A DNA stretch of 64,000 nt from Bacteroidia bacterium (GTDB lineage: Bacteria > Bacteroidota > Bacteroidia > 2-12-FULL-35-15), in contig JAGVJJ010000004.1 in the NCBI GenBank assembly GCA_020051175.1, forward strand, positions 43,558 to 107,557, read 5' to 3'. The notes under the pieces are model-generated. The model saw only the letters and a list, made by a program, of their open reading frames with translations, had not been told where the DNA came from and did not search any database. Position numbers and translations under genes: made by a program. Positions 15,871-62,500 of the stretch are shown here, in pieces (position 1 is the stretch's first letter; the number at the start of each line of letters is the position of its first letter).

Positions 15871-15910
15871 AAACAAGGGAGGCCGAAATTTTCGGCCTCC
15901 CTTGTTTTTT
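15871..15910 (+). terminator. rho-independent terminator
   Basis: AAACAAGGGAGGCCGAAA/TTTCGGCCTCCCTTGTTT is a perfect GC-rich palindrome followed by a T-run. It lies 35 nt after the CHRD gene stop. Confidence 0.85.
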
Positions 15911-43759: not shown

Positions 43760-43880
43760 AATAGCTAATAACCTGGTAACTCAGTAAACTCTGTAACCCA
43801 ATCCCCTAATAACTAATAACGGATAACTATTAACCCAATAACCCATTACCTATTACCCTAATAACCAATGAACCAATAAA
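43760..43880. repeat. block of the same repeats in inverted orientation (ATAACTATTAACC; nearly G-free on plus strand)
   Basis: Exact ATAACTATTAACC occurs at 43823-43835. CCAATGAACCAAT (43865-43877) is the reverse complement of ATTGGTTCATTGG in the left block. CAATCCCC pairs with GGGGATTG at 43537. Confidence 0.8.
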
Positions 43881-43897
43881 CTAGTCTGACTAATTCG

Positions 43898-43905
43898 TAT
43901 CTTCG
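43898..43905 (+). promoter_or_regulatory. imperfect -7 box TATCTTCG upstream of leuS
   Basis: It has one mismatch to TAnnTTTG and lies 26 nt upstream of the leuS ATG. Confidence 0.25.
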
Positions 43906-43930
43906 CACCTGCTAAAAAAGTTTATAAAAA

Positions 43931-46900
43931 ATGGAATACAATTTCAGAGAAGTAGAAAAAAAATGGCAGGAACACTGGGCCAAGAATAAAACCTATAAAA
44001 CGGAGAACAGCTCTTCCAAACCTAAATATTATGTGCTGGACATGTTCCCGTACCCAAGCGGGGCTGGCTTGCACGTTGGGCATCCGTTGGGATATATTGC
44101 TTCTGATATTTTTGCGCGCTACAAACGCCTGAAAGGTTTTAATGTATTACATCCGATGGGGTATGATTCATTTGGTCTTCCGGCTGAACAATATGCCATT
44201 CAAACCGGCCAGCACCCTGAAATTACTACCAAAACCAATATTGCACGTTACCGTGAACAGCTGGATAAAATAGGCTTTTCATTCGACTGGGACAGGGAAG
44301 TGAGAACCTCCGATCCGAGCTATTACAAATGGACCCAATGGATTTTTATTCAGTTATTCAACTGCTGGTACAATAAAAAAACGAACAAGGCGGAGAAAAT
44401 AGAAACGCTTGTTAAAACTTTTGAAACTACCGGTTTTAAAGGTACCGAAGATGATATTTTAACCGGTGATTTGGAAGTTTACCACGATGGTTTTACCGCT
44501 GAAGAATGGAGCGGTTTTTCAGAAGCTACTAAAGAGCAGGTTCTGCAACAATTCCGACTTGCTTACCTGAGTGATACCATGGTGAACTGGTGTCCGCAAC
44601 TGGGTACCGTGCTTGCCAATGAAGAGGTGAAAGATGGTGTTTCTGAGCGTGGGGGCTATCCGGTGGAACGTAAGCTGATGAAGCAATGGAGCCTGCGTAT
44701 TACGGCTTATGCCGATAGATTACTAAATGATTTGGAAGGTATTGACTGGACGGAAAGTATTAAAGAAGCGCAGCGTAACTGGATAGGGAAGTCGGTAGGA
44801 ACCAGCATCCGTTTTAGCCTCACCCCTGGCCCCTCTCCAAAGGAGAGGGATAACACGCCTGGCTATCAAACAGCAAATAAGGCAATATGGGAACGATTGA
44901 AATCCAATTCGAGAGAAAATAGGAAAAATCAAACAGAAGCAGAAGAGCTTCTTTGGGAGCAAGTGCGAGATAGGAAGCTGGGATATAAAATCAGGAGACA
45001 GCACGCTGTTGATCAATTTATAGCAGATTTTATTTGTTTGGAACAAAAACTAATTATTGAAGTTGACGGTGAAATACATAACTATCAGCAGGAGTATGAC
45101 GAGGGAAGGACTTATCTTTTGGAAGAAATTGGTTATAGAGTAATCAGATTTACAAATAATTCAGTAAAGGAAAATATCAATTGGGTTTGCGATGAAATTG
45201 CAAAGGCGTTACAGTCTCCCCTCTCCTTTGGAGAGGGGGCAGGGGGTGAGGCTTTTGTTGAAGTCTTCACCACCCGACCCGACACTGTTTTCGGAGTGTC
45301 CTTTGTAACATTAGCCCCGGAACATGAACTGGTAGCGAAAATTACAACAGATGCACAAAGAAAAGCAGTAGAAGAATATGTGACATTTGCCAAAAACCGC
45401 AGTGAGCGGGAGCGTATGGCAGATGTGAAAAAAATTACCGGGGTGTTTACCGGTGCTTATGTTGCACATCCGTTCACTGGAAAAAAAGTTCCCGTATGGA
45501 TAGGCGACTATGTGTTGGCCGGTTATGGAACAGGTGCAGTAATGGCAGTTCCTGCGCACGATTCGCGTGACTTTGCTTTTGCAAAGCATTTTGGATTAGA
45601 CATTACTCAGGTTATTCTTCCCCCTTCTCCTTTGGAGAAGGGGCCGGGGGATGAGGCTTATGAAGCTAAAGAAGGGAAATTGGTTAACTCTGATTTTCTG
45701 GACGGATTGGAGGTAAAAGCTGCCATCAAAAAGGCGATTGCCGTAATAGAAGAAAAAGGCTTAGGGAAAGGCAAAACCAATTTCCGTTTGCGTGATGCTA
45801 TTTTTGGGCGTCAGCGCTATTGGGGGGAGCCCATTCCGGTGTATTATAAAGATGGAATTCCTCATGTGTTAAGCGAAAGTGAATTGCCGTTGGTATTGCC
45901 GGAGGTAGATAAATATCTCCCTACTGAAACCGGTGAACCACCATTGGCCCGTGCCAAAGACTGGAAATACAAAGGGGAATATGAATACGAATATTCCACC
46001 ATGCCGGGCTGGGCTGGCTCTTCCTGGTATTTCCTGCGTTATATGGATGCACATAATGACAAAGAGTTTGCTTCGAAAGAGGCAGTAAACTATTGGCAAA
46101 ATGTAGACTTATACATGGGCGGGGCGGAGCATGCTACAGGGCATTTACTGTATGTGCGTTTCTGGACAAAGTTTTTGTACGATTTAGGATTGATTCCTGT
46201 GATCGAACCGGCAAAAAAACTGATTAATCAGGGGATGATACAGGGAAGAAGTAATTTTGTATATCGTTTAGGTTTTGTGGGGCATATTGAGAATGATGGA
46301 AAAGATAATAAAATTTTTGAATCTCTTCCTTCACTATTCGTGTCTAAAAAATACTTTGATAATCAAACAGAATATAACACTGAGATATTTGCAAGACATT
46401 CCAAAATACTCAAGGAGAATAATATTGCGTCTTTACCACCGATTAGGTACCACGTGATTATTCCATTGCATGTTGATGTTAATATGGTGGAAAATGATGT
46501 ATTAAATATAGAAGCTTTTAAAAATTGGAGAGAAGAATATAAGAACGCTGAATTTCTTTTGGAGGACGGCAAATACATCTGTGGCAGCGAAGTAGAAAAA
46601 ATGTCCAAATCCAAATGGAATGTGGTGAGCCCGGATTCTATGGTGGAGCAATACGGTGCAGATTGTTTGCGCCTGTATGAAATGTTTTTAGGGCCTCTGG
46701 AGCTTTCCAAACCTTGGAACACCAATGGCATTACAGGTGTTTCTAATTTTATGCGTAAGCTGTGGCGATTGTATCATACCACAGACTGGAACAACACCCC
46801 TCTCCTTTGGAGAGGGGCAAGGGGTGAGGCTATCAGCAATGAACCAGCTACAAAGGCCGAGCTAAAAACCCTGCACAAAACCATAAAAAAAATCACAGAA

Positions 46901-47314
46901 GATATTGATCGTTTTTCATTCAACACTTCCGTAAGTAATTTTATGATTTGTGTGAATGAGCTAACGGAGCAGAAATGTAACAAACGTGAGATACTGGAGC
47001 CTCTGGCAATCATTATTGCGCCTTATGCACCGCACATTGCAGAAGAGCTGTGGAGCAAGTTAGGGCATAGAGAAAGCATCACGTATGCTGTTTTCCCTGA
47101 ATGCAAAGAAGAATACCTTGTAGAAAGCTCCTTCAATTACCCTGTTTCGTTCAATGGAAAAACCCGCTTTTTTCAGGAATACGACCGCTCTTTATCCAAA
47201 GAAGAAATAGAAAAAGAAATCATGACCCTGGAGCAAACCCAGAAATATCTTGAGGGAAAAACTCCTAAAAAAGTGATTGTGGTGCCTAATAAGATTGTAA
47301 ATATTGTGATATAG
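43931..47314 (+). CDS. leuS: leucine--tRNA ligase carrying three in-frame repeat-element insertions
   Basis: The HIGH motif ([10 protein letters not shown]), NWIGKS, the editing-domain [24 protein letters not shown] and the C-terminal anticodon-binding region are all present in a single 1127-aa ORF. Confidence 0.95.
44818..45251 (+). mobile_element. TIR-bounded ~434 bp module encoding a DUF559 (Vsr-like) endonuclease domain, in frame within leuS
   Basis: The left end CCTCACCCCTGGCCCCTCTCCAAAGGAGAGGG (44818-44849) is the near-exact reverse complement of the right end CCCCTCTCCTTTGGAGAGGGGGCAGGGGGTGAGG (45218-45251). The interior translates to [82 protein letters not shown], the DUF559 pattern. 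Confidence 0.6.
45620..45657 (+). repeat. solo copy of the palindromic repeat, in frame in leuS editing domain
   Basis: CCCCCTTCTCCTTTGGAGAAGGGGCCGGGGGATGAGGC is translated as [13 protein letters not shown]. Confidence 0.85.
46797..46830 (+). repeat. solo copy of the palindromic repeat, in frame in leuS C-terminal domain
   Basis: CCCCTCTCCTTTGGAGAGGGGCAAGGGGTGAGGC is translated as (T)[11 protein letters not shown]. Confidence 0.85.
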
Positions 47315-47321
47315 TAGTTTT

Positions 47322-47428
47322 TTAACCGTCATTGCGGGCGGAGCGAAGCAATCTCATACCAGCATGAGATTGCTTCTCCGAAGGAATCTTCAGACATTCG
47401 CTAAAAGCCCCTTCGTAATGACGGTTAA
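47322..47428. repeat. nested palindromic REP-like element downstream of leuS; probable terminator
   Basis: The outer arms are TTAACCGTCATTGCG (47322-47336) and CGTAATGACGGTTAA (47414-47428). The inner 13-bp perfect stem is GAAGCAATCTCAT (47345-47357) paired with ATGAGATTGCTTC (47364-47376). Confidence 0.7.
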
Positions 47429-47538
47429 AATCCCTTTCCATAACGGCTTTCAATCCCATTTTAAGCCCCTGTTTTCCCAAAACCTTAAGAAACCGTTATT
47501 AAATACCCCTATTTCAAGGAAATACCAATAAAAATGAC

Positions 47539-62464: not shown

Positions 62465-62500
62465 CCCCTCTCCTTAGGAGAGGGGATGATGGGGTGAGGC
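62465..62500 (+). repeat. intergenic copy of the palindromic repeat found in leuS
   Basis: CCCCTCTCCTTAGGAGAGGGGATGATGGGGTGAGGC fills the 50-nt spacer between the asnS stop (62502) and the meaB-like start (62451). Confidence 0.85.

Follow-up and report, generated by a model that had tools for sequence, protein, structure and literature searches.

In a 64-kb stretch of a Bacteroidia bacterium genome (64,000 nucleotides of GenBank assembly GCA_020051175.1, contig JAGVJJ010000004.1; the whole stretch is called the window below), the leucyl-tRNA synthetase (LeuRS) gene leuS contains a 436-bp cassette, formed by two inverted hairpin repeat units and a complete DUF559 domain of the Vsr-like PD-(D/E)XK type between them, all of it read in the host frame. 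We consider this insert, together with its counterparts elsewhere in Bacteroidota, to be probably a translated, non-splicing nuclease cassette, selfish or formerly selfish, that resides in the loops of host genes. A first-pass annotation of the window had described four copies of a palindromic repeat in leuS, a gene it took to be hit three times; our motif scan recovers all four within an uninterrupted open reading frame (ORF) of 1127 amino acids (aa), but two of them (units A and B) are the inverted termini of a single DUF559 cassette, with units C and D standing alone. Nor is leuS a chance victim: the gene is a recurrent host across the phylum, and both cassette sites and the solo-unit loops are reused in many lineages.

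Anatomy of the leuS cassette

The leuS product is a bacterial-type LeuRS, matched best among solved structures by T. thermophilus LeuRS (1h3n, E=4e-181). Its Pfam tRNA-synt_1, LeuRS editing and Anticodon_1 domains are all found and its catalytic motifs are intact (HIGH-type HVGH, KMSKS and TTRPDT). The repeat unit spans ~35 bp and is built from a hairpin, CCCCTCTCC-TTT-GGAGAGGGG, a spacer of 3-5 nt and a box, GGGGTGAGGC; the hairpin of every copy is predicted to fold with a 9-bp stem and a 3-nt loop. Searching the window with the hairpin motif CCCCTCTCCTTTGGAGAGGGG (up to 3 mismatches) returns 5 sites, against 0.00 in the shuffled window, and the box (up to 1 mismatch) likewise occurs 5 times, always 3-5 nt from a hairpin (Table 1). 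Four of the five units lie inside this one 3.4-kb gene (p ~4e-5, our own binomial estimate with the gene taken as fixed).

The boxes of units B, C and D are read as GGG GGT GAG GCT (GGEA), GGG GAT GAG GCT (GDEA) and AGG GGT GAG GCT (RGEA), a phase that skips the TGA of GGTGAGG; unit A is translated in reverse orientation. The first-pass annotation had pointed to this shared G/D-E-A reading of the three same-orientation copies, and the codons agree. Taken alone the shared phase says little, because G-E-A is one of two stop-free phases of the box, the second of which (G-V-R) is used at other loci. By our own translation, the consensus unit is stop-free in 5/6 frames, only the phase G GGG TGA GGC being closed, and the open frames encode Pro/Gly/Ser-rich peptides; the unit is thus a ready-made translatable linker.

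Units A and B lie in inverted orientation, boxes facing out (GCCTCACCCC ... GGGGTGAGGC), and the 367 bp between them encode the complete DUF559 domain, which is the sole cargo of the cassette. The match to PF04480 scores 113.6 bits (cut-off 20.6) and covers profile positions 2-109 of 109, and the closest solved structure is an endonuclease-like protein (PDB 3hrl, E=1.9e-19). The motifs RRQH, DF.C, E.DG..H, D..R and RF.N are intact in the window copy and at least 95% conserved across 42 copies embedded in LeuRS. Terminal inverted repeats of the form (A)GCCTCACC ... GGTGAGGC(T) are found in cassettes and in short inverted doublets of units alike.

The cassette sits between positions that align to T. 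thermophilus LeuRS residues 236 and 238, at the turn joining two beta-strands (a beta-hairpin) just ahead of TTRPDT; we call this position site 1, and those of units C and D sites C and D. An AlphaFold model of the whole LeuRS (built on 74 homologues; mean predicted local distance difference test score, pLDDT, 71) folds DUF559 (aa 312-428) as a separate domain with pLDDT 82-93. Confidence falls below 50 for aa 299-311 (unit A), 430-440 (unit B) and 951-966 (unit D), and the unit C region (aa 562-582) is coil with pLDDT 66-70. As modelled, the nuclease domain is held to LeuRS by two low-confidence linkers. The first-pass annotation had placed the insertions between NWIGKS and TTRPDT, after FAKHFGL and before LHKTIKK, and had supposed these points to be variable loops. 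The flanking motifs are as it described, and the supposition is supported: related LeuRS have short variable loops there, with empty sites at site 1, C and D, and the model gives coil or low-confidence linkers.

Table 1. Features of the leuS locus and of the repeat family in the window
Feature	Position	Strand	Remarks
leuS	43931-47314	+	1127 aa, uninterrupted; Pfam and 1h3n match
Whole cassette	44817-45252	+	436 bp: inverted unit, DUF559, unit; no in-frame Met codon or stop
Unit A, left terminus	44817-44850	-	box GCCTCACCCC at 44817-44826, hairpin 44830-44850; aa 296-307
DUF559 / Vsr-like PD-(D/E)XK domain	44864-45214	+	aa 312-428; profile, structure and motif matches
Unit B, right terminus	45218-45252	+	hairpin 45218-45238, box 45243-45252; aa 430-441
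Unit C, solo, slightly degenerate	45622-45657	+	CCCTTCTCC..GGAGAAGGG, hairpin 45622-45642 (2 mismatches), box GGGATGAGGC; in editing domain
Unit D, solo	46797-46830	+	hairpin 46797-46817; loop before anticodon-binding-domain helix
Unit E, intergenic, loop TTA	62465-62500	+	hairpin 62465-62485; between asnS and MeaB-like GTPase gene
Tract near-identical to L002	44514-46017		3 mismatches; holds cassette and unit C

The intergenic unit E lies in the 50 bp that separate the asnS stop (62502) from the start of the MeaB-like GTPase gene (62451), its box abutting the stop codon of asnS, another aminoacyl-tRNA synthetase gene. A role for the hairpins as intrinsic terminators was considered and rejected: they occur inside an ORF, and no U-run follows unit E on the transcribed strand. 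The unit belongs to no Rfam family, and an E-value search over 43800-47500 gave one chance match only. An unrelated perfect GC-rich hairpin, GGAGGCCGAAATTTTCGGCCTCC (15878-15900, 9-bp stem), is the sole other one this strong in the window.

Filled, empty and decayed sites in related LeuRS

We aligned the 120 best LeuRS homologues, mostly from Bacteroidia metagenome-assembled genomes (MAGs), with 64-97% identity. DUF559 lies at exactly site 1 in 42 of them, its left flank following the pattern L[TSI]P[NGST]PSPKE[RK]G and its right-hand hairpin being read in all three frames (PLSFGEG; PSPLERG, as in PSPLERGxGGEA; and PLLGRG, as in PLLGRGAGGEA). Four of the 120 carry it at a second site, after aa 680/681 (following ARAKDWKYK). 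One homologue, P0049 (1256 aa), has DUF559 domains at both sites, and the one at site 2 clusters with the site-2 copies of other proteins and apart from its site-1 partner. In P0332 (1079 aa), DUF559 at site 1 is accompanied by a NUDIX domain (PF00293, aa 520-643) at site C, so this loop accepts other whole domains.

Homologues that have no insert show what the loops look like when vacant: a short variable loop at site 1 (for example KVENSDAEV), AGGDLSKES or PPVDWDFADKS at site C and NGDALN at site D. Relative to HNGDALNISNE, unit D is a clean insertion of ~12 codons. Site C departs from a simple insertion, for ~10 native codons are replaced there and the net gain over the closest empty allele is 2 codons. 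Other lineages also carry units at sites C and D, in other frames and at slightly shifted positions. Site 1 further holds remnants. P0021, P0033, P0080 and P0101 keep solo units there, P0008 has a partial deletion, and the LeuRS of the isolate Mucilaginibacter gilvus (L064) has both units as a doublet with no nuclease between them.

On a neighbour-joining tree of the LeuRS core, cassette presence needs at least 8 changes, against 35 with shuffled labels, which indicates mostly vertical inheritance with repeated gain or loss. LeuRS with a cassette also carry ~5x more solo units than those without (mean 0.60 versus 0.12; Mann-Whitney p=1.6e-4, a statistic that ignores phylogeny and genome-wide unit load).

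The cassette can disturb gene calling. In the complete genome of a Sphingobacteriales bacterium (L003; CP096135.1, 364884-385336), the cassette-bearing leuS is called as several ORFs, the DUF559 part being annotated as a 150-aa 'endonuclease domain-containing protein'; frameshifts or annotation splitting are probably the cause. Cassettes inflate and fragment gene calls, as in the leuS of CP096135.

Selection on the nuclease domain and on the units

Between the window and L031, whose LeuRS core is ~84% identical, the DUF559 domains differ at a proportion of 0.158 of nonsynonymous sites (pN) and 0.737 of synonymous sites (pS), giving omega ~0.06. LeuRS segments of the same pair give omega 0.05-0.08, the same level. 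An omega this low indicates that DUF559 is translated and constrained as protein, and synonymous divergence matching that of the host indicates that the domain is as old as the host divergence in these lineages.

The units follow another pattern. Across five site-1 cassettes their mean pairwise identity is 86-88%, with 0.74-0.93 at third codon positions, against 57% and 0.39 for the DUF559 coding DNA. High third-position identity, combined with the use of different frames in different homologues, argues that the units are conserved as nucleotides and not as peptides, by constraint or concerted evolution.

Mosaic leuS alleles in close relatives

The closest relatives at the DNA level show the cassette as a polymorphism. 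Over 8.6 kb upstream, L001 (GCA_049276555.1) and the window are 98.8% identical, and the leuS of L001 is without unit A, DUF559, unit B and unit C, all of which are present in the window and in L002. The 5' part of L001 leuS is only ~86% identical to that of the window; from 45722 to the stop codon (45722-47313) the two are 100% identical, unit D included. L002, an independent ENA assembly, has ~94-96% identity around leuS, and its leuS ORF, open over 1138 aa, includes the four units and DUF559. Over the 1.5 kb of 44514-46017 only 3 positions distinguish L002 from the window, and the 128 bp just upstream differ by 27%. In the window allele, the tracts shared with L002 and L001 overlap by 296 bp. 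Sharp mosaic tracts thus flank the cassette in these metagenome assemblies, a pattern that bears on co-conversion of flanks. From these alignments we read the leuS locus as a recombination mosaic in which the cassette moves with ~0.3-0.8 kb of flank, the near-identical L002 tract appearing as the signature of a recombinational transfer of cassette plus flanks.

One further stretch of leuS varies strongly between these alleles: aa ~768-880 (46231-46570) are 52-70% identical to L002, with adjacent parts at 93-100%. This hypervariable stretch falls in a lineage-specific insertion (aa ~777-889) that cannot be aligned with T. thermophilus LeuRS.

The same 296-bp overlap is a place where an assembler could switch strains, and in this respect the mosaic speaks for the idea that the repeats are assembly errors. 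That explanation, or its variant in which leuS is a dead gene backed by an intact second copy, we regard as barely credible. The four-unit ORF is validated by L002, which alone carries all four units open, and its independent assembly removes the doubt, raised with the first-pass annotation, that the repeats are assembly artefacts. Dozens of homologues from NCBI, JGI, ENA and Logan also keep the frame, purifying selection extends across the insert, and the LeuRS catalytic motifs remain intact.

DUF559 cassettes in other host genes

A second sample, taken from metagenomes by DUF559 similarity alone, gives a view that does not start from LeuRS. All 9 of the closest DUF559 relatives (at least 55% identity) are embedded in larger proteins and flanked by the leuS unit family; their ORFs reach at least 924 aa, or 1157-1308 aa when not truncated by the end of a contig, and the hosts are LeuRS at site 1, LeuRS at site 2 and MetH. 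Among more distant relatives, embedded copies are mixed with free-standing ORFs of 120-160 aa.

A HMMER search of 1.84 billion representatives yielded 21,414 DUF559 matches, of which we inspected the best 150. Thirty-four of these exceed 400 aa, and 30 of the 34 were scanned against Pfam. The hosts in this set include LeuRS (at least 7), another class I aminoacyl-tRNA synthetase, PheRS-beta, AroC, MetH, RecJ, XseA, TGT, UDP-GlcNAc 2-epimerase, SpoIID, TPR-SpoIIE phosphatases, a methyltransferase, and Type ISP and Eco57I-like restriction-modification enzymes. In all 30, DUF559 is bracketed by P/S/G-rich peptides of the hairpin-repeat type, not always those of the leuS-type unit; a peptide regular expression places the latter beside ~10-17% of diverse DUF559 homologues. 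The Type ISP/Eco57I-like enzymes are among the most frequent hosts (P0280, P0290, P0292, P0298, P0313, P0314, P0371, P0243 and P0264, with further loci L021, L139, L150 and L155), and P0243 holds two DUF559 domains.

The DUF559 copies group mostly by host and site, with some crossings. Chitinophagaceae copies in LeuRS site 1 (L046), LeuRS site 2 (L008) and AroC (L014) are mutual nearest relatives, the site-2 copy of P0059/L125 is nearer to site-1 copies than to most site-2 copies, and one MetH copy is nearest to a LeuRS copy. Such kinship across hosts indicates that cassettes have moved between sites and genes, and the identities concerned (55-66%) indicate that these moves are old.

These hosts bear on the possibility that DUF559 is a domesticated module, an old fusion in which the nuclease serves the host (in repair, defence or nucleic-acid quality control, for example) and the hairpins are retained as DNA or RNA signals or as linkers, with nothing still mobile. 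Much in the LeuRS data suits such a module: omega ~0.06 and saturated synonymous divergence, both equal to the host gene, clustered presence on the LeuRS tree, and units kept at the nucleotide level over long times; REPIN-RAYT systems are likewise argued to be vertically inherited and long-lived. We nevertheless think it unlikely, given at least 15 unrelated host proteins that share no functional theme beyond being conserved genes, the use of 2 or more sites within LeuRS, the presence in close relatives of empty alleles and decayed remnants, and DUF559 kinship that crosses host genes.

Units and cassettes across Bacteroidota

A census of the repeat found units across Bacteroidota. Scanning one genome per species with the pattern CCCTCTCCTTTGGAGAGGG-N3-8-GGTGAGG gave at least 119 loci. 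The matches listed come from Flavobacterium and other Flavobacteriaceae, Mucilaginibacter, Chitinophagaceae, Cytophagales, Prevotellaceae, Dysgonomonas, Capnocytophaga and Ignavibacteria, and all are Bacteroidota or Ignavibacteria records bar one MAG labelled Comamonadaceae. Of at least 135 exact unit matches, most are in short open stretches and ~20-25% are inside long ORFs. With a more tolerant unit model, the loci listed contain at least 194 units; among them neighbouring units are arranged tails-out in 46 cases versus 2, and the spacing of paired units is bimodal, with 36 doublets, mostly at 20-40 bp, and 10 cassettes at ~370-420 bp.

The full layout, CCTCACCCC-hairpin, DUF559, hairpin-GGGGTGAGG, is seen at LeuRS site 1 in the window, L003, L031, L033 and L046, at LeuRS site 2 (L008), in chorismate synthase AroC (L014), in L044, in IcmF-type methylmalonyl-CoA mutase (L028 and L083) and in Lhr helicase (L050). 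The unit-DUF559-unit arrangement occurs also in an N6-methylase and in a 1398-aa protein, the host ORF being open in every case. Solo units that have no DUF559 nearby lie in frame in AsnB, UxaA, Fmt, HMG-CoA lyase and UvrD.

Several loci elaborate on this theme. A second variant of the unit, TCCTCTCCTTTGGAGAGGATTTAGGTGAGG (peptide ..FGEDLGEA), is often paired in a doublet with the main variant, each making up one arm (L009, L019, L047, L058, L088, L114 and others). The IcmF genes of L028 and L083 have, besides the cassette, 3-6 or more extra units or doublets in further linkers of the ORF; in L140 and L142, DUF559 occupies another position in IcmF and has another repeat on its flanks (SPKGGDLEGA type). 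In a Ferruginibacter MAG (L066), a 624-aa ORF that, assigned by eye, looks like a tRNA nucleotidyltransferase has a ~50-aa unit-containing stretch (PVPSP[PL]ERGWGEV...) four times in tandem, which looks like local amplification of the unit within a coding region.

The census also bears on a rival account of the units. They could be ordinary repeats of the repetitive extragenic palindromic (REP) kind or like MITEs (miniature transposable elements with inverted repeats), spread by an unlinked transposase that lands at random and surviving in essential genes only as in-frame copies in permissive loops, with DUF559 as unrelated passenger or favoured landing site. Most census units are indeed solo or doublets in short open stretches that are probably intergenic, in-frame solo units occur in many genes with no DUF559 nearby, and REPs within ORFs, including tRNA synthetase genes, are documented (PMC3733652). 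The orientation bias of 46:2 and the discrete 370-420 bp spacing class around DUF559 speak against random landing, as do the 9/9 closest DUF559 relatives of the unbiased sample that are embedded and unit-flanked, the four of five window units in one gene and the identical cassette ends in at least 6 unrelated host genes. We judge this account distinctly improbable.

A probable translated, non-splicing nuclease cassette

On balance, then, we favour a selfish or once-selfish nuclease cassette. Such an element would borrow the promoter and translation of its host gene and would survive only where a loop tolerates the insert and the frame is kept. Its nuclease would probably recognise or cut unit DNA or unoccupied target sites, whereupon repair of the break could copy the cassette into the site. 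Inheritance would be mainly vertical; now and then homologous recombination would carry the cassette from one allele to another, and on rare occasions it would jump to a new site or gene. A cassette that lost its interior would leave a short inverted doublet, and further decay, or separate insertion, could yield solo units such as C and D, kept only in permissive loops.

The origin of the solo units in the window was considered separately. The idea that unit D is the footprint of a deleted cassette is unsupported, as boxes would be expected on both sides and D has one; beside the unit C hairpin there is a weak, spacerless match resembling a left box, and true doublet remnants occur elsewhere (L064).

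Several points weigh against the favoured reading. A PD-(D/E)XK nuclease alone cannot perform strand transfer, and the flanks of cassettes and doublets show no target-site duplication of consistent length. We infer both the nuclease activity of the embedded domains and the mechanism of mobility from sequence. DUF559 synonymous sites are as saturated as those of the host gene, which together with the clustering on the LeuRS tree (8 versus 35) implies that most copies are old and vertically inherited, and such copies would fit a domesticated domain too. The mosaic alleles come from metagenome assemblies, where strain chimerism could produce part of the pattern; the solo-unit excess rests on the uncorrected statistic given above; and the repeats flanking DUF559 in its distant hosts differ from the exact leuS-type unit family.

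More tentatively, the DUF559 cassettes may represent an unrecognised class of bacterial mobile element: a nuclease devoid of start and stop codons, equipped with translatable hairpin ends and lodged as a non-splicing internal domain in essential and conserved proteins. It would maintain, or be maintained by, cognate hairpins across the phylum, as a Bacteroidota counterpart of REPIN-RAYT in which a Vsr-like nuclease takes the place of the tyrosine transposase. The literature that we could search, which is incomplete, yielded no paper on DUF559 cassettes, on the leuS-type unit or on LeuRS-DUF559 fusions; the first-pass annotation likewise knew of no description of the repeat family, and novelty is accordingly provisional.

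Were the favoured reading true, a hairpin repeat family almost invariant from Flavobacterium to Prevotellaceae would gain a candidate enzyme, and an explanation would be at hand for many of the odd P/S/G-rich peptides in Bacteroidota proteomes and for many annotations there as "endonuclease domain-containing". Repeat-derived sequence would then be a steady source of loop variation in core proteins, and the cassettes would offer sites for domain insertion, and linkers, that nature has already tested in LeuRS and other enzymes.

Comparison with known systems

Short palindromic repeats lying in frame in conserved genes, including tRNA synthetase genes, and translated there have been described (PMC3733652). 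The first-pass annotation likened the leuS units to Rickettsia palindromic elements, and the likeness is apt: both these and intragenic REPs are in-frame, translated palindromes that leave the ORF open and are tolerated in loops. The leuS-type unit differs in sequence family, in its ~35-bp size and in its Bacteroidota host; its 35-bp sequence is different from those of the Rickettsiales families. It differs further in that units pair as the termini of a protein-coding cassette and recur in the same loops of the same gene across the phylum.

REPIN/RAYT systems resemble the cassette in having a GC-rich hairpin next to a conserved tag, inverted doublets whose spacer is short, an enzyme between two inverted units and long vertical persistence. 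Their enzyme is an HUH (Y1) tyrosine transposase, whereas the cassette cargo is PF04480 only, Vsr-like PD-(D/E)XK; their tag is GTAG or CGTC, where the leuS-type unit has GGGGTGAGGC. The cassette enzyme moreover lacks a separate gene, being translated inside host proteins as an internal domain. MITEs share the terminal inverted repeats, and the fixed-length target-site duplication of a MITE is absent here.

As to the nuclease, within the PD-(D/E)XK superfamily DUF559 has been placed together with Vsr and I-Bth0305I, a Vsr-like homing endonuclease (EDxHD) encoded in an intron (PMC3424549). The embedded DUF559 domains differ in that they are not in an intron. The ShiLan-type insertion in a phage methylase is likewise neither intein nor intron, keeps the host frame open and carries a nuclease (PMC11855218). 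There the HNH nuclease is out of frame with its own GTG start; the leuS cassette differs in having its nuclease in the host frame, in being bounded by hairpin units and in residing in cellular genomes.

Inteins with homing endonucleases come close in other respects, as in-frame nuclease inserts by conserved motifs of essential genes that show presence/absence polymorphism, decay products and mosaic flanks. The leuS cassette differs in its conserved terminal inverted repeats. A Pfam scan found no Hint or splicing family, and there are no splice-junction residues, the insert starting S-LTPGP and ending GGEA-F. An intein or intron was rejected on these grounds, with no splicing domain in the scan and the frame translated; apparently the mature protein keeps the insert. 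Splicing takes place in the RNA for introns and in the protein for inteins. If our reading is right, the cassette would offer a selfish nuclease a third way to live inside an essential gene, its insert being retained in the protein and relying on repeat-encoded flexible linkers.

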